A stretch of DNA of 51,410 nt from Reclinomonas americana ATCC 50394 (taxonomy: Eukaryota), in the NCBI GenBank assembly GCA_048213135.1, contig PS015020.1, positions 1 to 51,410 of the forward strand, in the 5' to 3' direction. Within the stretch, counting starts at the first letter, position 1; each line of letters starts with the position of its first letter. The translations under genes and the position numbers were made by a program. Under the pieces are notes generated by a model. It made no database searches. It was not told where the DNA came from and worked only from the letters and a program-made list of their open reading frames with translations. Of this stretch, positions 9,201-47,858 are shown in pieces.

Positions 9201-11477
9201 TGCTGATGTGATTCCATGTATTCCACTGGCGCACCCGGTTCCGCCGGCAGTGGCATCAAGTCACCTCGCTTGAGCTGTGCCGAGGTCGGAGCATGGCGTT
9301 AGTCAATAATGGACACAAACAAAAGGTCGACAACAAACACTCACTCACCTGTCGAGCAAAAATCATGACGCTGTCGATGACGGCCTGCGCCACCACCGGC
9401 GGAGACGTTCGCATGAATCTGACAATGAGCGCCAGCACACGGTCCAATGCCTCCAGGGACCACGTGCGGAATTCCATGACCTCTGGCGAACCCAGCTGCA
9501 CACACGAGGAACAATGAAAAATGAAACACTACTCGGAAAGAACCACTCGACAGAAATGCACACCATGGGAACGGCCTCGATCAGCTCCATGGCAACGGTG
9601 CAGCACAACATGGCGACATTCGACGAGTACGGGTCCGACATTTCGTTCAGCAGGTCTGTCTCCGTTGGATTCGGCTGCAGCAGCTGTTATGAGTCACCGA
9701 CAACGCAGCATCACAAGCGGTACTGTACCGCAACTTGCAGCGACGCTATTGCTGACGCGGCAGCATCCAACAGATTCGCAATGTCCAGCTCCTGCAGCAA
9801 TGAGATCTTGCGCTGTGGTGGATCCATACCCTTTTCGACAATCTGCAATGGGAGCACGCGTGAGTGGGGAAACGAGCAGGTGAAAAAGGGAATCGCGGAT
9901 CACCTTGGCAACACAATTGACGGCCTCGGCGCGCGTCTCCCCGTCCTGCAGGTACTGGTACAGTTGTGCCAGCAGCGCTGAATTGACCACCAGCGAAATA
10001 TCAATCCACTCTACGAGCAATGTGAGAAGCCATGAGGTGAACGCAATCCTCCACAACAGAAACACAACGCACCGACATAACGCGACAAGACGTCCAAACA
10101 CTGCCGCACAAGTGACGGGTGGTGCGTGCGACATGAAGCCAGCACCCAGACCCAAAAGTTCACAATCTCCCCAATGCACTGCTCACGCAGAGCGTCCTTC
10201 TGCACTCCCCCATGCCATTCAGCACACACACACACGCACGTGGACACGAGGAGAGAAGAAACACCAATCCACGCAACAATACGAATGCCCGCCTGGTGCA
10301 TCACACTGGTGCGATGGATCTCACGATTGACCACCTCGTCGTCGACGGTGGTGAAGATTGTCAGCAGGTACTCGATGAGGCCGACACCGTAACCCTGAAT
10401 GGGAACAGAAGATGAGAGACGAGAGGAAGCAACATTCAAAGAGACCCACGGGAGAGAGGAGGGGGGGGGGGAGGAGGGAGGAGGGAGGAGGAGGAGGGAG
10501 AGAGAGAGAGAGAGAGAAGAGGGAGAGAGCGAGGGGAAAGGGGGAAAGAGAGCGAGAAAAAAGGGATGGAACGCAAGAAGAACAAGAAGAAGAACATGCA
10601 GAACACAAGTGGAGGAGGAGAGACAACCAAACGACAGCAGAGTCAGAAACACTCTCGAAACTCGACACTCAGACAACAGAGAAATGAGACTCACAGCACA
10701 GCGAGGGAGGGAGGGAAAGGGAGAGAGAAGAGCGAGACGAGAGGAACTGCAGTGTCTCAAGGGAAGAAGAAGGAGAACATGCAGAGAAAGAACACGACGG
10801 AGACAAAGGTGGGGGGCAACCACACGACATCAGAGTCTGAAACACGCTGCGTCCTCGACACTCAGACAGCAGAGAAGAGTTCCAGACCATCATCCTCATC
10901 CTCATCAACATCCTCAATCACCCTCTCTCTCTCTCACACACACACCGATGCATCGGGTCCCTCCGGCAGTGCCTGCATCAGTGCCTGCGCCTGCGCCAGC
11001 AGCGCAGTGAATGCCGTCTCCCACTGCGCCGGGTACTGCTGCACAATCGCATGCGCATACACCACCGCAAACTTGGTGCGCACAAACAGCTGCGAATCGT
11101 GCACAGGATTCACTCCCGACGGCGACGTGGTGTGGTCGTGCACAAACGTGATGAGGAACTCCTGGAACGCTTGCTGCTCACTCAGCGGCAGCATGCCCAG
11201 TCTGTGTCAGAGATGTCAGTGAACATGTCTCCCGCCCCCACTGCACACGCACTGCACACACACGCGCGTGTGCTCACCGATTGGAGACAAACTCGTGCAG
11301 CAGAGAGAGTGAGTGGAACACCGACTGCACCATGGGTGAGTGGTAGAGGCGGTCGGCCAAGAAGCGCCAGTTGTCATTGACGCGCTCGAGGTATTGCCGT
11401 GCGCGATTCTGCTGTGGCGAGCTCGGGTCGTACAGACACGACACGGCGTTGTCGAACGACGCCCCTTCGTCTGCCAT
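6270..11477 (-). CDS. XPOT: Exportin-T (tRNA export receptor, Los1/PAUSED family), many exons
   Basis: MADEGASFDNAVSCLYDP..RARQYLE; FVRTKFAVVY..YPAQWETAF; DDEVVNREIHR..RI|KDALREQCI; VLSRYV|EWIDISLVVN; GLQHKDVRLRRHTASVLRRF. All are exportin-T-like segments joined by GT-AG introns. Confidence 0.85.
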
Positions 11478-11567
11478 TCGCCCTCCCAAACAAAAAACGC
11501 AAAAGACAGGCGGAATTTTACGACGGACGAACTTACACAAACCCTCCAGATCGCCTGCTTGTCAACC

Positions 11568-12647
11568 ATGTCACATCCACTGCCTCCTCCGCGCGTTCAT
11601 CACTTCGGCAACCTCGTGTCGGCATTGGCGATTACGCGCGACTGCCAGCATGTTGTCGTGAGCAATTGGGATACGACTGTGCGTGTTATGTCGCTGGTGA
11701 GTGGCGAGACAGTGCGGCTGTTCGACGGCGTCCGGCCCGTGTGGTCATCCATCGCCTTCACTCCCGATGAGCAGCACATTGTGTGTGGCGCTGGTGACAT
11801 GACTGTGCATGTGTTGTCAGTGGCGACTGGCGAGGAGGTTTGCCAGTTGCAGAACCACACCAATGTGGTGATGAGTGTCGCCGTCTCTCGCGACGGGCAA
11901 CACGTCGTGAGTGGGAGCTATGACAAGACAGTGCGAGTGTGGTCCCTGGCGAGTGGAGAACAAGTGCGACTGTTGACCGGACACACCGACTGGGTAATGT
12001 CGGTCGCCGTCACTCCCAACAACAAGTTCATTGTGAGCGGGGGTGCAGGTCGCGACAAGACAGTGCGGGTGTGGTCACTGGCGACTGGCGAGCAATTGCA
12101 CCGCATGACGTTTGAGGTTCGCTTGCTGTGTGTCGCCGTCACTCCCGACGGTCAGCGCGTGGTGATTGGGAGTGCCGACAACATTGTGCATGTGCGATCG
12201 CTGGTGGGCGATGAAGAGGTGCTGCAACTGACAGGCCACAGCCATCCTGTGCGCTGCGTTGCCGTCTCTCCCGACGGTCAATACGTTGTGAGCGGGAGTG
12301 AGGACTGCACTGTGCGACTGTGGTCGCTGGTGACGGGCGACGAACTCCGACGACTGGAAGGGCACACTCGCCTCGTGTCGTGCGTCGCCATCTCCGCAGA
12401 CATTCTCCACATTGTGAGTGGCAGCCGCGATGACACCATGCGTGTGTGGGCCGCTCCACTCGGTCTGGCCAGTGACGAGTTGAGTCAGGCGCGGGCGGCG
12501 ATGCAAGCAGTGCAGCAGATGCAGCCCGACGAGGAGGAAGAACCGGATTCGCGTTGCTTACCAGAGATGGTTTTGCGGTGCTTCATTGTCGAAGATGCTT
12601 CCGTCGTGCTCAATCGCTGCCGCGGCGACCCTGGGTCGTGGTGGTAA
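11568..12647 (+). CDS. Intronless WD40 protein, 7 repeats (single beta-propeller) with NLR-type repeats
   Basis: ATG 11568 (MSHPLPP); seven units of type GH..V.SVAV.PDGQ.VVSGS.D.TVRVWSL; short helical tail. Head-to-head with XPOT, 90 bp apart. Confidence 0.85.
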   Translation: MSHPLPPPRVHHFGNLVSALAITRDCQHVVVSNWDTTVRVMSLVSGETVRLFDGVRPVWSSIAFTPDEQHIVCGAGDMTVHVLSVATGEEVCQLQNHTNVVMSVAVSRDGQHVVSGSYDKTVRVWSLASGEQVRLLTGHTDWVMSVAVTPNNKFIVSGGAGRDKTVRVWSLATGEQLHRMTFEVRLLCVAVTPDGQRVVIGSADNIVHVRSLVGDEEVLQLTGHSHPVRCVAVSPDGQYVVSGSEDCTVRLWSLVTGDELRRLEGHTRLVSCVAISADILHIVSGSRDDTMRVWAAPLGLASDELSQARAAMQAVQQMQPDEEEEPDSRCLPEMVLRCFIVEDASVVLNRCRGDPGSWW

Positions 12648-15273: not shown

Positions 15274-17874
<2,601 letters not shown>

Positions 17875-26414: not shown

Positions 26415-29133
26415 TCAAGCATCAAAGTACATCTGCGACGAGAAGCAAAAAGATTAGCCACGTATGCACCAGCAACAAACACACAAACTAAAGAGACTCA
26501 CCATGTACTCCCACGGGTGCGGGCGAGTACGCAGCGAGTTGATCTCCTCGTCGAACTTCCACTCGATGTAGGCCTCAAGGAAAGCCTTGGAGAAGACACC
26601 TCCGCGGGTCAGCCACTCGTGGTCGTTGGCCAGCGCCGTCATCGACTCCTCGAGGGTGGCCGGCACACGCTTGACGCCGCGAGCCGCCGCCTCCTCCTTG
26701 CTCAGCGAGTAGAGGTTGACGTTGAGGGGCTCACCCGGGTGCACCTTGTTCTGGATGCCGTCGAGGCCGGCCATGAGGATGGCGGCGAACGACATGTAGG
26801 GGTTGGCGGTTGGGTCGGGCGTGCGGAACTCGGCGCGCACGGCCTTGGGGTTGGAGTTGGGGATGCGGATAAAGGCACTGCGGTTGCGGCTCGAGTAGGC
26901 CTGGAACACTGGCGCCTCGTAGCCGGGCACCAGGCGCTTGTACGAGTTGGTGGTCGGGTTGGTGATGGCCAACAGCGCACTGGCGTTCTTCATGATACCG
27001 CCGATAAAGTAGAGGGCCATGTCGGAGAGACCGGCGTACTTGTCGCCACGGAACAGGTTGTAGCCATCCTCACGGTGCAGCGACACGTGGGTGTGCATGC
27101 CGGAGCCGTTGTCGCCGTGCAGCGGCTTGGGCATGAAGGTGGCCGTCTTGCCGTTCTGCAGCGCGACGTTGCGCACCACGTACTTGTACCACATGACCTG
27201 CAGCGGGGGGAGAGGGGGAAAGTGAGAAGAGAGGAGAGAGAGAGAGAGAGAGAGTGGAAGAAGTCACGCACCTGATCAGCCATCAGGCGAGCCTCGTTGT
27301 ACTTCATGCCAATCTCGCACTGACCGCCGGCACCGACCTCGTGGTGCTGCGCCTCAATGGGAATGCCCAAGCTCTGCGTACAAACAATCAGACTCCTGTC
27401 CACACCAACAATTGCGAAGAAATATGCAAACGCACCTCCATCGCCAACGCCATGTCGGCACGCACGTCGCTCACGTAGTCGTTCGGCTTCACGGGGTAGT
27501 AGCCGCCCTTGACGCGCGGCTTGTAGCCGAGGTTGGGCTTGCCGCGGAAGAACTTGTTACCGGTCTCCCACGGTCCTTCCTCGGACTCGAGGGAGTACGA
27601 GGCAGAGTTCGGGCGCAGCTCGTACGAGACGCCTGTGGGGTGGGGGTGAGGGGTGAGAGAGGCGTTGTAGCACACAATGGCAGGAAATGTCAACGCACCG
27701 TCAAAGACAAAGAACTCGGCCTCGGGTCCCACGTTGAAGAAGGTGGCAATGCCGGTCGACTGCAAGTATTTGTGCGCACGGTCCAAAATGAACCGTGGAT
27801 CGCGGTCGTACGGCGTGCCATCGGGGTTGTTGATCGAGCTGCGAACAACGATCAGAAGGGAGAAGGGTCAGGGAAAGAAGGAAAGCGAAACGCAACCAAG
27901 TGAACGAGACGGTCTTCTCCTTGTGGAACGGGTCCACAGCGGCGGTCTTGGCGTCAGGCACCAACACCATGTCCGAGTTCTCAATGCCCTGTGTGGAGAG
28001 GGAAAGAGAGTAAGAATGCATGATTACGAGCAAGAGCAGATACAACAGCAGCTTTGTCAGAACAGATGAATGAAGAGAATCACAGAGAACAGGAAAAGTG
28101 ATGATCGGCAAGCCATGCACAGAACGCGTAGAGACGTAGACAGTATACATGAGAGAACAGCAGCATGGTCGAACGTACAGTATAATGTGAAGAGGATCAC
28201 AAAGAACAGCAATGAGTAAATCACATGCAGAGATAGAAGGGGAAGCGTACAAAGTGAAAAACGGCAAGCCATGCACAAAGATGGTGTACAAGAGAGAGCA
28301 GCAGCTTGTTGAGGATAGACGATGGGTGAAAAGGATCACAGAGAACAGCGATGTTGCGACAGAAGGGGGGAAAAGGGTGCAGAGTGAAAAACGGCAAGCC
28401 ATGCACAGAACGCGTAGAGACGAAGACGACGTTCAAAGTATGCAACACAAGACACGTGCAGAGACACAAAGGCAAGAATGCAGCAGCAAGTCCATGCGAC
28501 TGCACCCAAGAAAGCATGAAACACAATACGGGAGACGGAACAACTCAATACAGGAAAATCTTCATCACACACCACACCCAGCACAGCCCGCTCACGATGC
28601 AGCGTCCCACTCGCAGCCACCCAGACACACAACAAATAAACAAAGAGAGAAGTGCAAGACAACCCTCACGCACCTCCCAGCAGCGAATGGAGGAACCATC
28701 GAATCCGAGTCCGTTGGCAAACAGCGACTCCGAGAGGTTGCTGGCCACCGGCACACCCAAGTGCTGCCACGTGCCAAACATGTCGACAAACTTGAAGTCG
28801 AGCATCTTCGCACCTGCGAATAATGTAATCAATCAGCAACCGCGTCCAAAAAGACACATAGCAAGCGACCCGAAAAAGGGAGAGTCNNNNNNNNNNNNNN
28901 NNNNNNTCTCACCAGAGGAGCGCACATAGTCGACGGCCTGCGCCGGCGTAAAGTCCTTGTGCAGCTTGTTGGTGTTCCACTGAGAGAGAGAGGAGGATGT
29001 GTGAGAGTGCGCGCGGGAAAACCATAGACAGTAAGACACACACACACACCTGCAGGTTGAGCTGCGGGAGAGTGGTGATGGAGCGCGCTCGGGTCGCGGT
29101 GAGACCCAGGCGGCGAGACAAGTGGCCGAGCAT
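26415..29133 (-). CDS. glnA: Glutamine synthetase type I-beta (bacterial glnA-like) with introns and an N-terminal presequence
   Basis: [123 protein letters not shown]. Confidence 0.93.
28020..28500. repeat. Degenerate tandem repeat inside a glnA intron
   Basis: Recurrent CGGCAAGCCATGCACA (about 28106, 28262, 28392) and ATCACAGAGAACAG-like motifs. Confidence 0.75.
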
Positions 29134-41143: not shown

Positions 41144-41304
41144 CTCACTCGCGACTTTGTGGACACGTCGCATCGGAAGAATTCATAAAAGCTTTTTGGC
41201 AGCGTCAGCTTCAATCATCCTACAATTCGCCTCCCCCCGTGAGCGTAGAAAACCAAGCCCCCAACACCTATCTCTCGTAGATACNNNNNNNNNNNNNNNN
41301 NNNN

Positions 41305-41590
41305 AGGAGAGCAAGAGGCAGTGATGGGGAGGAGAGCAAGAGGCAGTGATGGGGAGGAGAGCAAGAGGCAGTGATGGGGAGGAGAGCAAGAGGCAGTGAT
41401 GGGGAGGAGAGCAAGAGGCAGTGATGGGGAGGAGAGCAAGAGGCAGTGATGGGAAGAGCAAGAGGCAGTGATGGGGAAGAGCTTGAAAGCAGTGATGGGA
41501 AGAGCAGAAGGCAGTGATGGGGGGAAGAGCAAGAGGCAGTGATGGGGAAGAGCAAGAGGCAGTGATGGGAAGAGCAGGATCCGGAGGCAG
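41305..41590 (+). repeat. 25-bp minisatellite (GGAGAGCAAGAGGCAGTGATGGGGA)n
   Basis: About 6 near-perfect copies, then shorter degenerate copies; no spacers. Confidence 0.92.
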
Positions 41591-42299: not shown

Positions 42300-42362
<63 letters not shown>

Positions 42363-42460
42363 GACACTCACTGTCATTTATGTTTGCGTGTCAGTTTTCT
42401 GTGAACGTGAGTTCCGCACACGATTCATCGCTGTCGGTGGTGGTGGAGGGCGTGTCGGCC

Positions 42461-45400
42461 ATGTCCACTCTCTCCGACTTGCTGCGCGAGGCCACGCGCC
42501 TGCTGCGCGAGAAGAGTGGAGATGGGGGGATGGAGATTGTGGGAGTGGAGAAGCCGGTGCCATTCAACATCGAATTTGTGGGTGGCGTGCCTCTCATTGG
42601 ACTCGGCATCAACTCATCGACGCATCTCGTCGTCCGTCTGACACTTGGCGTGGCGCTGCAGTCGAGCGGGGGGAGTGGGAGTGGACGGTGCGTGTTTGGA
42701 TGTGCACTCGAGTCGTCCTCGGTGTGGTTCATGCATCTCACTCTCATGGTTATCACAGCAACTTGCAGAGTGAGGCTCGGTTTGTGTTCGTCATTGCCAN
42801 NNNNNNNNNNNNNNNNNNNNNNNNNNNNNNNNNNNNNNNNNNNNNNNNNNNNNNNNNNNNNNNNNNNNNNNNNNNNNNNNNNNNTCAACTTCCCACTCAC
42901 CATACATCAATCCGCCTGGCGTACTGACTTTGTTTCTCGCATACAGCATAATTCACTCGAATCGCATCAACATGGCGTTCGAGGCGGTGGAGGAGGCCGT
43001 GCGTCTGCGCTGTCAGCGCACACTTGCGCAGTTCAGTCGTGATCATTCCGACTTTGATGTGCGAGCGTGGGTGCTGGGTTTCACACCACTCGGCATGCGT
43101 GCGATGGCGGTGAAGGCATGGCGTGAGCAACATGCTCCACTCCGTACTGTGCGAGTCGCGCTATTCAAGGAGAAGCAGCCGATGTTGTTGGCATGGCGTG
43201 CTGCATTTGACGCCGACCCCTCTACCGACCCTCCGTGTGACGGGTTCGACGCGACGGCACTCGCCTCCATCATGCTGTTTGGTGGCTTTGTTCAGGATGA
43301 CAGTCGCAAGCTGTTGCTCATTGACGATGCTGATGAACGCAAGGCCGTGGAGGAGCTGCGTGAGGTGCGGAACGAGTTGGTGCACGGGTCGTCGACGTGG
43401 ACCGAGGCCAGTGTACAAGAGTACCTCGGCGACGGTGGTGTGCTTCTGTCCCTCCTGGCCAAGCTGCGTCTCCCCCCCGATGTGCGTGACAGTTTTGCTA
43501 CTCGGATTCGCCAAGCGCACCATTTTGACTTCAGCATCAGCACATTCGACGAGCGACTTCATCGACTGGCGTTGCGTGAGCTGTCGTTCTACCAGCATGA
43601 CGAGAGTGTGCGCAAGGACATGCAGATGTATGTGCCGCTGTTGTGTTCCCGTGATCGTGACGTCTCTTCGAGTGAGAAGATGACGGATCTATTGACGGAG
43701 GTGGATAGTTTCCTCTCGGACACCAACACCACCCAGCGTGTGTTGGTGCTCTTTGGCAACAGTGGTGCCGGCAAGACCACCACCATGTCGATGCTCGCTG
43801 AGAGAGCATGGCGACAGTGGCAGACGAGAGAGAGCAGACGAGTGCCTGTGCGTGTGCCTCTTGGTTCTCTGCGAAATGCCGATGATCGGTTGTTGGAGGA
43901 GGCATTAGAGCGACTGTCGCCCGAGTTGGGATTCAGCGAGTCGGATGTGCGACGGCTGAAGGAGGAACCACTGCTGTTGCTGCTTGACGGGTATGACGAG
44001 CTGTATCGTGGTGTGAATCTGTTTGTCAAGAACCAAATGGATGTGTGCCGCGATGTGAAGGTGATTATCACATGTCGCGGCGATTACGCATTGACGGCAT
44101 TGGGTGGTGTGACGGGGTATCGGCGGTACTTTGCACCAGTGGATGCACGCGGAAAGTTGCGCATGCAGCAGCTGATGGAGCGGCACATTGCGCCATTCAG
44201 CAAGGAGCAGATTGAGGAGTACTTTGAGCGATGGGTGGAGGTGGGTGGTGATTGTGATGACGGCGAAGTGCAATGGTCATCTACTGAGGAGTACATGCGT
44301 GCACTGAAGAGTGTACATGGACTGGATACACTGGTGTCAAATCCATTCCTGCTGTCGGTAGTTGCCCGTGTGTTGCCGCAGCTGGTGGCAAGTGGCGTTC
44401 AGCGACCGACTCGGTGTGACGTGTTTGACCGATTCATTCGACAGTGGATTGAGAGGGAACAGGAGAGGCAATCAAAACTCGGTGCGGAGCGTGTGCCGAG
44501 TTGGGAGACATGTCTCTCGTTCTGTGAAGGACTGGCACGGTTGATGCATGAGAGGAATGTGGTTCGTGTGTCGGTGACGGAGAGTCGATCAGGTGATGGT
44601 GGGGAGGAGGAGGATGACTTCGGTGGTGCACCGCTCACCTTACGACGAGCGGAAGGGGTGCCATTTGACAAGTTCCTCAGTCACGGGAGCCAACATGTGC
44701 GAGTGTGCTGTCCAATTGTGCGACGATATGGGACGACGCAGTGGGGTTTCGTGCATCTGTCTCTGCTCGAACACTGTGTGGCACGGCATGTGTTTGCGTG
44801 GGAGACGTGGGATGAGGAGAAGAGGATGACAGTGCAAGATGTGCAGCAGCATGTGCTGGGTGTGCGACTGCTGAATGATCGACCATCGATGGTGGGGCAG
44901 ATGGCCGAGGTGGTGCGACGATCTCCTGTATTGCAAAAGAGACTGTGGGAGGTGATTGAGCTGTCGAGAGAGGTTGATGAGGAGCGACTGGTGACGGCAG
45001 CCGCGAATGCAGCGACGGTGTTGTGTGTGGCACAAGTGTCGTTTAGTGGGCGCGATCTGTCGGCTGTGCGAGTGAGGAATGCAGATTTGAGGGATGCGGT
45101 GATGCACAGGACGGTGTGGAGAGGAGCGGATATGCGCGGGGTGAATATGTGCATGGCGTTTGCGAGGGAGGCGGACTTCAGACGGGCGAATGTGACGGGT
45201 GTGAAGTGGCCGAGGAAGCCATTGGTGGGTCACACTTATATTGTGAATTCTGTTGCCGTTACTCCTGACGGTCAGCATATCGTTAGTGGCAGCTGGGACA
45301 AAACAGTGCGAGTGTGGTCTCTGACAAGTGGAGAGGAAGTGCAATGTATTTGTGGACACATAGCAGGTGTGTACTCAGTTGCTGTCACACCCGATGGTGA

Positions 45401-47096
45401 GCACATTGTGAGCGGGAGTCGAGACAAGACTGTACGAGTGTGGTCGCTGGCAAGTGGCGAAGAGTTGCGACGGTTGGAGGGTCACACTGAAGAGGTGTAT
45501 TCAGTTGTCGTCACTCCGAGTGGTCAACATGTTATCAGTGGGAGTGAGGACCAAACTGTGAGGGTGTGGTCACTGCAGAGTGGACAGGAGGTGCGCCAAT
45601 TGGTGGGACACACTGGAAAGGTGTGGGCTGTCAGTGTTACCCCTGATGGCCAGCACATCGTCAGCGGAAGTGGAGACAAAACTGTGCGAGTGTGGTCACT
45701 GGCGAGTGGAGAGGAAGTGCGACGGCTGGAGGGTCACACTCACGCTGTGATGTCTGTCGCCGCCACTCCCGACGGTCAGCATGTGGCAAGTGGGAGTGGG
45801 GACGAAACAGTGCGTGTTTGGTCACTCGCGAGTGGAGAGGAAGTGCGTCGGTTGGAGGGGCATGCCGGGTGGGTGTTGTCCGTCGCTGTCACTCCCGATG
45901 GTCAACACATTGTGAGTGGAAACTATGCAAAATCGGTGAGTGTTTGGTCACTGGCAAGTGGGACAGAAGTGCGACGATTAGAGGGTCACGAAGGCGGAGT
46001 GAATTCTGTCGCTGCCACTTTCGATGGTCAGCAAGTAGTAAGCGGAAGTGGTGATAAGACAGTGCGAGTGTGGTCAATCACCAACGGGGAAGATGTTCGT
46101 CGAATAGCGAGGCACGCCAAGGATGTAAAGTGTGTTGCGGTAACTCCTGATGGTCAGTACGTGGTGAGTGGAAGCGATGATAAGACATTGAGAGTGTGGT
46201 CAGTGTCAACTGGAGAGGAAGTTCAACGATTGGAAGGGCACGCAGGTCCCGTGTGGTCTGTGGCTGTCACTCCCGAAGGTCAGCACGTTGTAAGTGGGAG
46301 TCGAGACATGACAGTGCGAGTCTGGTCTGTGGGGAGTGGAAAGGAGCTGAGATGCTTGGTGGGACACAGTGGTGACGTCTGTGCTGTGGCCGTCACACCG
46401 AATTCGCTGTCTATTGTAAGCGGGAGCAATGACATGACAGTAAGGGTGTGGTCAATTGAGAGAGGTGAGGAAGTACTACAACTCATACACACTGGGTTAA
46501 TTTGGTCTGTTGCCATCAGTCCTGATGGTCGGTACGTTGTCAGTGGGTGTAGTGACAAGACTGTGAGAGTTTGGTCGTTGGCAAGTGGTGAGGAGGTGCG
46601 CCGACTGGAAGGTCACACTGAGAGGGTGTGGTCTGTTGCCGTCACTCCGGATGGTCAACATGTTGTGAGTGGTGGCGTGGACTTGACGGTGCGTCTGTGG
46701 TCACTGATGAGTGGCGTCGAAATGCGTCGGTTAGAAGGACACACACGTGCTGTATTGTCAGTTGCCGTCACTCCCGACGGTCTGTGCATTGCAAGTGGGA
46801 GCTTCGACAAGGCTGTGCGATTATGGCCTGTGGCGAGTGGAGCCGACGCACGTCTGTTGGAGGGACACACGGATGTCGTGATTGCTGTCGCCGTCACTCC
46901 CAATAGCGAACACGTTGTGAGTGGGAGCTGGGATAGGACTGTTCGTATGTGGTCATTGGCGAATGGAGAAGAGGTTCACGGTGACACTGTCGACCAAGAT
47001 GCCCGAACATCCTCCAAACCAAGGTCGCGACACCTCCTCGATCGAATTTTAGGATCATTCCTGCCTGATTTTACCGACGCGTTGTCCGAGCAGTAA
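42461..47096 (+). CDS. NLR-like STAND protein: HEPN-like N-terminus, NACHT, pentapeptide repeats, 14 WD40 repeats
   Basis: 4.15-kb uninterrupted exon 42947-47096 with FDATALASIM..ELREVRNELVH, Walker A VLFGNSGAGKTT, Walker B LLLLDGYDEL, NPFLLSVV, FVHLSLLEH, AAANAATVL..FSGRDL pentapeptides and 14 GH..WS repeats. A probable first exon 42461-42687 joins in phase (CG|C); alternative start ATG 42972. Confidence 0.9.
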
Positions 47097-47254: not shown

Positions 47255-47350
47255 GCTCGCTCTTCCCATCACTACCTTCTAGATCTACGCTTCCCATCAC
47301 TGCGTCCTTCTCTCCCCACTGCCTTCTGCTCTTCCCATCACTGCTTTCTA
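47255..47350 (-). repeat. Reverse-complement degenerate copies of the 41305 minisatellite
   Basis: CTCTTCCCATCACT(G/A)C-type units running into the N gap. Confidence 0.8.
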
Positions 47351-47858
47351 NNNNNNNNNNNNNNNNNNNNNNNNNNNNNNNNNNNNNNNNNNNNNNNNNN
47401 NNNNNNNNNNNNNNNNNNNNNNNNNNNNNNNNNNNNNNNNNNNNNNNNNNNNNNNNNNNNNNNNNNNNNNNNNNNNNNNNNNNNNNNNNNNNNNNNNNNN
47501 NNNNNNNNNNNNNNNNNNNNNNNNNNNNNNNNNNNNNNNNNNNNNNNNNNNNNNNNNNNNNNNNNNNNNNNNNNNNNNNNNNNNNNNNNNNNNNNNNNNN
47601 NNNNNNNNNNNNNNNNNNNNNNNNNNNNNNNNNNNNNNNNNNNNNNNNNNNNNNNNNNNNNNNNNNNNNNNNNNNNNNNNNNNNNNNNNNNNNNNNNNNN
47701 NNNNNNNNNNNNNNNNNNNNNNNNNNNNNNNNNNNNNNNNNNNNNNNNNNNNNNNNNNNNNNNNNNNNNNNNNNNNNNNNNNNNNNNNNNNNNNNNNNNN
47801 NNNNNNNNNNNNNNNNNNNNNNNNNNNNNNNNNNNNNNNNNNNNNNNNNNNNNNNNNN

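Follow-up and report, generated by a model that had tools for sequence, protein, structure and literature searches.

Gene layout and receptor architecture

We analysed a 51,410-nucleotide stretch of the eukaryote Reclinomonas americana ATCC 50394 (assembly GCA_048213135.1, contig PS015020.1, positions 1 to 51,410), referred to here as the window, with a focus on one long gene on its plus strand that is probably best described as encoding an NLR-like STAND protein with a putative HEPN-type ribonuclease (RNase) head. The window, a draft eukaryotic scaffold, is interrupted by 14 runs of N, and these restrict what can be said about gene ends and flanks. The open reading frame (ORF) runs without interruption from 42930 (TTG) or 42972 (first ATG) to a stop codon at 47094-47096. 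Counted from the ATG, the complete coding sequence (P0001, 42972..47096) comprises 1374 amino acids (aa) plus the stop.

Upstream of the gene lies an assembly gap (N 42800-42884), followed on the plus strand by a leader of 87 bases with 46% GC (42885..42971). Because the frame between the gap and 42972 contains neither an in-frame stop nor an ATG, a further exon may be present in or before the gap, and 42972 was taken as the start codon. The AG at 42945-42946 follows a pyrimidine-rich stretch and is a possible 3' splice acceptor, with 42947 as the next base. The original prediction had placed the gene at 42947..47096. A single ORF does extend to 47096, but position 42947 is not a start codon and perhaps follows a splice acceptor instead.

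The tripartite NLR-like/STAND layout that had been proposed for this gene, with an N-terminal module, a NACHT domain and a pentapeptide/WD40 part, is contained in this one ORF, and its NACHT, pentapeptide and WD40 parts are matched by Pfam families. The N-terminal region (42972..43676, plus strand as for all following features of the gene, aa 1-235) is predicted to be entirely helical and represents the candidate effector plus linker helices. The NACHT NTPase domain (43737..44237, aa 256-422) scored 40.5 bits with PF05729 at a cut-off of 26.7, which assigns it to the NACHT clade of STAND NTPases. Its motif set is intact and consists of the Walker A motif GNSGAGKTT (43755-43781, aa 262-270), the Walker B motif LLLLLDGYDE (43971-44000, aa 334-343) and VIITCR (44061-44078). 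The subsequent helical region (44238..44999, aa 423-676), which includes SNPFLL at 44337-44354, is alignable with fungal and bacterial relatives.

A conserved junction motif, AANAATVL (45000-45023), opens the pentapeptide segment (45000..45245), for which PF00805 reported 24.9 bits at a cut-off of 20.2. Solved pentapeptide proteins align to aa 686-758 (45027-45245) with E-values down to 6.9e-9, in agreement with the predicted position of these repeats at about 45040-45210. The number of WD40 repeats had likewise been predicted correctly: PF00400 finds 14 stretches (E 3e-150) between 45195 and 46955 (aa 742-1328) in units of 41-42 aa, a number sufficient for two predicted seven-bladed propellers. 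At the DNA level the array has a period of 126 bp with copies that are 65-70% identical, and the mean amino-acid identity of the units is 52%. Variation between units is highest at positions 16, 34 and 18, in the contexts GH-x-x-x-V-x-S and SGS-x-D-x-T. The protein ends with a C-terminal tail of 46 aa without family match (46956..47096, including the stop codon).

Of four sequencing runs, one small public run yielded matching contigs, 12 of them covering about 44161-45121, plus scattered WD40 pieces. Some contigs of this run are identical to 44161-44926, others differ by 10-14% over 44422-45121 (85-90% identity, paralogue-like), and some join WD40 repeats in other registers. The differing contigs and the other WD40 registers therefore indicate that paralogues with different repeat numbers probably exist. 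Elsewhere in the window, another ORF (11340-12647, plus strand) encodes seven WD40 repeats of the receptor's type, up to 54% identical to the receptor array in a tblastn comparison. As no NACHT domain was found near it, this ORF seems to be a sensor paralogue that consists of a propeller alone.

The N-terminal region and its HEPN-like helix

The candidate effector domain is a HEPN-like core at about aa 40-185, which includes the segment FDATALASIM (43245-43274, aa 92-101). Its most conspicuous element is a helix resembling the catalytic-motif helix of HEPN domains (43326..43406, aa 119-145, DADERKAVEELREVRNELVHGSSTWTE). The helix contains RNELVH (R133-N134-x3-H138) at exactly the predicted position of 43368..43385, an R-x4-H arrangement with an Asn directly after the Arg. 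The motif that defines the HEPN superfamily, R-x4-6-H with a polar residue after the R, is thus present as R133-N134-E-L-V-H138. RNELVH ends a long predicted helix and is followed by a short loop, as in the aligned bacterial family members.

Profile comparisons converged on this helix. When the 243-aa N-terminal piece (42972-43700) was searched against Pfam, the sole match was PF18731 HEPN_Swt1 (E 0.022, 15.5 bits, profile positions 74-100 of 115), and shorter pieces gave E-values from 0.0099 to 0.0024, the best with a 53-aa piece, and up to 18.6 bits over positions 74-104 of 115. The same helix was matched below threshold by PF18735 HEPN_RiboL-PSP (E 0.04-0.1), and the PADLOC model CARF2--CARF_HEPN gave a sub-threshold match to aa 118-162 (E 0.0088). 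We collected Swt1-like HEPN domains from cyanobacterial genomes, where they were present in 41 of 401. An hhalign comparison with 29 of these domains returned a P-value of 7e-4 at a probability of 26%. With a custom hidden Markov model built from 29 Swt1-like domains the query scored 12.9 bits, compared with 8.5 bits for the best of 2000 composition-preserving shuffles; with a model built from 37 domains the values were 13.2 bits and 7.9 bits for the best of 5000 shuffles. The query score was reached by 0/2000 and 0/5000 shuffles, respectively. The N-terminal regions of 36 NACHT relatives, which served as a negative control, scored at most 4.4 bits on the Swt1-like profile. In the cyanobacterial genomes, the Swt1-like HEPN domains (L050-L059 and others) are themselves N-terminal, in frames of about 1100-1180 or about 390-450 aa.

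Embedding look-ups in the ESM Atlas led to the same clan. For aa 1-230 the top clusters were HEPN_Swt1 (0.81) and HEPN_DZIP3 (0.78), and for aa 40-190 they were HEPN_DZIP3 (0.84, 181 shared features) and HEPN_Swt1 (0.81); scores below 0.9 are rated by the tool as leads only. In both look-ups, 9 of the 10 best named matches belonged to one clan.

At the level of sequence, the resemblance of aa about 119-145 to a HEPN catalytic helix is real, and we consider it somewhat probable that the N-terminus is a HEPN domain, which we refer to as putative. Because its scores stay below the gathering threshold of 27.5 bits, the protein is classed by sequence as HEPN-like and not as a member of PF18731. The proposal of a HEPN effector is thus upheld for one helix, which resembles HEPN domains beyond what shuffled sequences achieve, but not for the rest of the N-terminus, where similarity does not exceed chance.

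Several results weigh against a HEPN assignment. The PF18731 scores of 15.5-18.6 bits are well short of 27.5, every HEPN profile match is sub-threshold and extends over only about 25-45 residues, and the hhalign probability is just 26%. When scoring was restricted to the profile columns that precede the helix, the query was equalled or beaten by 373 of 2000 shuffles, and the columns that follow the helix gave it no score. PF18738, the model of DZIP3-like HEPN domains, had no hmmscan match at E up to 10. The bare R-x4-6-H pattern is found at 17 places in the protein, most of them RRLEGH within WD repeats; this pattern is not above chance, whereas the extended helix around residues 133-138 is. 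A search for homologues of aa 1-235 among proteins of 755-2405 aa found none at E up to 1e-3. Structure prediction was equally unsupportive: the single-sequence AlphaFold2 model of the N-terminus had a predicted local distance difference test score (pLDDT) of 40.6 and was unusable, and a Foldseek search of the PDB with a model based on a HEPN alignment returned nothing at E below 2. That second model reached a pLDDT of 69 and a predicted template modelling score of 0.57, but it is circular and lends no independent support because it was built on an alignment of HEPN domains.

We also considered the alignment of further conserved residues as evidence for the fold. MAFFT places all five family-invariant columns (W50, D93, F103, R133 and H138) in the query. 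When the helix was held fixed and the remainder shuffled, W, D and F were still aligned in 31 of 150 trials, and the conserved columns matched numbered 11/26 in the real sequence compared with an average of 11.7 among the shuffles. Since MAFFT aligns W50, D93 and F103 by chance about one time in five, this alignment was dropped as an argument.

Other searches for relatives of the N-terminus were negative within their ranges. No homologues of aa 1-235 were detected among proteins of 129-412 aa at E up to 10, and a sequence search of the PDB gave nothing relevant at E up to 10. Among metagenome contigs, N-terminal peptide patterns produced 315 pattern matches, 0 of them confirmed, and a degenerate pattern for ELREVRNELVH produced 0 matches; among viral contigs there were 7 pattern matches and again 0 confirmed. 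The sole phmmer match of the N-terminus among 1.84 billion representatives (E 1.3e-5) was a repetitive 2018-aa bacterial protein that we judged spurious.

A receptor of the same kind could instead carry a lineage-specific helical adaptor or another effector at its N-terminus, for example a membrane-targeting or protein-recruiting one, with RNELVH being a chance or convergent occurrence. This would account for a HEPN similarity that is confined to one helix, for the recurrence of R-x4-6-H 17 times in the protein alongside profile matches that are all sub-threshold, and for an N-terminal domain that is an orphan in every sequence search; moreover, relatives of the protein put non-enzymatic ARM/TPR modules in that position. 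It does not readily explain why three separate HEPN models and two embedding look-ups converge on one clan and one helix, or why 0/5000 shuffles approach the query score. An Asn after the Arg is also typical of HEPN motifs, and the motif stands at the end of a long helix before a short loop, as in the bacterial members. We regard a non-HEPN head as a possibility to be taken seriously but a rather unlikely one, and lean cautiously towards a STAND/NLR-like switch with a predicted, divergent HEPN-type RNase head.

Relatives of the chassis and the genomic surroundings

The remainder of the protein has recognisable relatives. A search with aa 1-700 returned four Mortierellaceae proteins with 26-27% identity as well as a caspase-NACHT-pentapeptide-WD40 protein (P0006, PF00656). 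Scanning prokaryotic genomes with a NACHT alignment gave 48 loci; a scan of prokaryotic genomes with a single NACHT protein as query found no bacterial relatives. We examined 33 of the 48 loci, namely L001-L021 plus 12 with a long NACHT match, and left out 15 with short matches. An AANAxTxL-pentapeptide-WD40 continuation is common to 10 of the 33. Their sources are three metagenome-assembled genomes (MAGs), one each from Coxiellaceae, Nitrospirae and Gammaproteobacteria, and several contigs labelled Mycoavidus, which lives as an endosymbiont in Mortierella. In tblastn comparisons with the 12 closest loci (L001-L011 and L019), the query showed identities of 24-36%. For nine of these the identity is 26-33% over alignments of 640-888 aa, the best being L011 (Nitrospirae) with 32% over 788 aa; for L008-L010 the C-terminal 253-412 aa alone were aligned.

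A quick IQ-TREE tree was calculated from 38 NACHT segments after P0003, which has no P-loop, had been dropped. In the quick tree the query falls inside a clade of 16 rows that holds all chassis proteins (Shimodaira-Hasegawa-like approximate likelihood ratio test 97). It forms a long branch whose placement within the clade is not resolved and whose composition departs from the alignment. The long intron-free exon had been thought to suggest recent acquisition. Because no close donor was sampled and the identity to every sampled relative is about 30%, such an event is not supported by the NACHT phylogeny, in which the query would represent a deep branch.

The N-termini of the relatives vary. ARM_5 with weak, sub-threshold TPR matches occurs at five loci, L006 has an ARM_5 fragment without TPR, and L003 has a weak TPR match. 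Further N-terminal modules are Metallophos (L011), CHAT (L017 and L021), TIR (L023) and AAA_35 (L024), and two further loci gave sub-cut-off matches to DUF4231 and PGAP1. For the remaining 19 of the 33 loci no N-terminal family was detected at E up to 0.001, and HEPN was found in none of the 33 bacterial or MAG N-termini examined. The variety of modules in the relatives therefore marks the N-terminal slot, as judged from domain content, as a swappable head that is often occupied by death- or defence-type enzymes.

Eight of these loci (L002-L006, L008, L009 and L019), all on contigs labelled as Mycoavidus cysteinexigens MAGs, are ARM_5/TPR-NACHT-pentapeptide-WD40 genes that are 32-42% identical to the Mortierellaceae proteins, and in the quick NACHT tree the fungal proteins nest among these Mycoavidus-labelled loci. 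Two explanations suggest themselves: either host DNA was binned into the endosymbiont MAGs, or fungus and endosymbiont have shared genes.

A different function for the whole protein also deserves consideration, namely that of a housekeeping or regulatory STAND scaffold outside immunity whose HEPN-like module binds RNA or is inert. WD40 arrays are general interaction platforms, and PMC3710099 presents the eukaryotic Swt1 HEPN domain as inferred to be inactive and RNA-sensing. However, our protein has the complete R, N and H set of the motif, and relatives of the chassis bear TIR, CHAT and caspase domains, which are death or defence types. The paralogue-like contigs at 85-90% identity are as expected of an expanding, diversifying family, and the repeat units vary most at few positions. 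A housekeeping scaffold thus appears improbable to us, and a receptor with a role in immunity remains the preferred interpretation.

The genomic surroundings differ from the gene in structure and composition. As had been noted, a frame of 4.1 kb without intron stands among intron-bearing neighbours: neighbouring genes are split over several frames in the manner of intron-containing genes. Examples are an ammonium transporter gene (22.6-23.6 kb), a glutamine synthetase gene on the minus strand (26.4-28.4 kb) and an exportin fragment near 10 kb. The GC content at third codon positions (GC3) of the receptor gene is 0.57, decreasing from 0.67 in the N-terminal part to 0.52 across the repeats; a glutamine synthetase piece has 0.91, an ammonium transporter piece 0.85 and the second WD40 gene 0.71. 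The low GC3 fits either weak expression or a foreign history.

On its left side, the gene is preceded by an array of a 25-nt minisatellite with the unit AGGAGAGCAAGAGGCAGTGATGGGG (41305..41572, plus strand), which directly follows the gap 41285-41304 and forms a left arm of uncertain membership in the gene. The same minisatellite occurs inverted at 47256..47349 (minus strand), directly before the gap 47351-47858. A 32-nt arm at 47317-47348 is 100% complementary to 41485-41516, and the inverted pair encloses a segment of roughly 6 kb with the gene. In total there are 12 matches to the unit, with 0.19 expected by chance, and elsewhere in the window we found a single match with 2 mismatches (202-216). 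Both arrays abut assembly gaps, so the pair could equally well be a product of scaffolding or a genuine inverted repeat with a foldback-like structure.

From these features one could argue that the open frame is carried as cargo by an element that is mobile or was inserted recently, or that it is a relic without function. The 4.1 kb without intron between split neighbours would agree with cargo, as would a GC3 of 0.57 compared with 0.85-0.91 in neighbouring housekeeping genes and the inverted arrays of one minisatellite on both sides. However, a frame of 1374 codons with intact NTPase motifs is not decayed, and a deeply branching NACHT domain with about 30% identity to all relatives leaves no recent donor. 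The arrays adjoin assembly gaps and could have arisen in scaffolding, the 15 ORFs of the 39.7-42.8 kb region showed no transposase or integrase, and the low GC3 also fits weak expression. We give mobile cargo or a relic hardly any credence. The most far-reaching interpretation, in which a new divergent HEPN family on a NACHT-pentapeptide-WD40 receptor would sit in a foldback-like cassette of ~6 kb and act as a mobile, ligand-gated RNase death receptor able to spread inside one genome or from one genome to another, is highly speculative, and we likewise hold it to be very unlikely as a whole.

Some further observations concern the surroundings. Minus-strand ORFs at 41.7-42.1 kb had been tentatively regarded as a mitochondrial carrier, a guess that found no support, as Pfam gave 0 families at E up to 0.01 for the 15 ORFs between 39.7 and 42.8 kb. 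Long CT dinucleotide runs adjoin assembly gaps (42300-42363 and other gap edges). The glutamine synthetase gene (26457-28432, minus strand) consists of at least 3 pieces, and by eye its conserved motif looks bacterial GSI-like, which we take as an assumption. An ORF at 15277-15939 (minus strand) unexpectedly matches Peptidase_S74, the chaperone of endosialidase (E 6.1e-11), an intramolecular chaperone domain familiar chiefly from phage tailspikes.

Proposed mechanism and comparison with known systems

In the mechanism that we favour, the double WD40 propeller behind the short pentapeptide solenoid would be the likely ligand sensor. Upon activation, the NACHT NTPase would oligomerise and bring the N-terminal helical modules into proximity, which would enable effector action. 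The effector would most likely be a divergent, metal-independent RNase of the HEPN type with R133, N134 and H138 as candidate catalytic residues. Because HEPN active sites form across a dimer, proximity would switch the RNase on, and the outcome may be the cutting of cellular or viral RNA followed by growth arrest or death of the infected cell.

Should the head prove to be an active HEPN RNase, the range of HEPN-armed NACHT receptors would reach beyond animals and bacteria into another eukaryotic lineage, and a chassis common to early-diverging fungi and bacteria would add to the case for the swapping of effector heads on old STAND bodies. The general picture of how such receptors work would be unchanged by the finding. 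We know of no eukaryotic HEPN-NLR that has been characterised biochemically, and the present gene, being intron-free and having a small N-terminal domain, lends itself well to experiments.

The activation model is drawn by analogy from RNase L and Ire1, whose KEN-domain HEPN RNases become active when a ligand drives an upstream domain to dimerise or oligomerise. The likeness is limited to this analogy, as the query lacks a kinase, an ankyrin module and a match to the KEN family.

A second point of reference is provided by Podospora HET-E and the NWD-type fungal receptors, which reportedly consist of a NACHT domain followed by internally similar 42-aa WD40 repeats with few variable positions. 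The query shares the order of NACHT and WD40 array, the unit length of about 42 aa and the concentration of variation at few positions. In contrast, its N-terminus has no HET match (the Pfam search returned HEPN_Swt1 only), which places it outside this class, its repeats are less uniform (52% amino-acid and 65-70% DNA identity), and a pentapeptide spacer is present.

The closest chassis is that of the NACHT-pentapeptide-WD40 proteins of Mortierellaceae, Nitrospirae, Coxiellaceae and 'Mycoavidus', which have the same layout including the AANAxTxL junction. Their heads are ARM_5/TPR, Metallophos, caspase or unassigned, and none resembles the N-terminus of the query.

Bacterial systems contain the same types of effector and sensor. 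One preprint counts HEPN as an enzymatic effector type of bacterial NACHT proteins and includes beta-propellers and pentapeptide repeats in their set of sensors (bioRxiv 10.1101/2022.07.19.500537), and another paper mentions bacterial STANDs with WD40 sensors and a HEPN-like protein with an Avs7-type sensor (PMC13581612). An N-terminal HEPN domain plus a STAND NTPase is likewise reported from bacteria in PMC3710099. The motif helix of the query is most similar to bacterial-type Swt1-like HEPN domains; unlike these systems, the query is found in a eukaryotic nuclear context with intron-bearing neighbours.

Metazoan HEPN-NACHT proteins offer the nearest overall parallel. In cephalochordates and cnidarians, PMC3710099 reports fusions of a Swt1-clade (CXorf38) HEPN domain with NACHT and Death domains. 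In the pearl oyster, according to PMC9646362, more than 50 NACHT proteins have an N-terminal DZIP3-like HEPN domain and can bear C-terminal TPR or WD40 repeats, and their commonest HEPN motif is Rx4H with an Asn after the Arg. The query resembles these bivalve DZIP3/hRUL138-like and cephalochordate/cnidarian CXorf38 proteins in its N-terminal R-x4-H with Asn, its central NACHT domain and its C-terminal repeats, which are WD40 or TPR in the metazoan proteins. It shares with them the concept of a predicted RNase effector on an NLR-like receptor (PMC9646362, PMC3710099), and its nearest ESM Atlas clusters are molluscan DZIP3-like HEPN proteins. It differs from them in staying below the Pfam HEPN thresholds without a PF18738 match, in having a pentapeptide segment between NACHT and WD40, in the position of its NACHT domain in the Mortierellaceae/bacterial clade instead of a sampled animal clade, and in its host, an intron-rich eukaryote. 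Among the titles and abstracts listed in a literature search, which was not exhaustive, none described a protist HEPN-NACHT protein. Overall, the domain logic of the receptor is already known from these systems, and what is new is the HEPN-like head on this chassis, its highly divergent sequence and its occurrence in this eukaryote.

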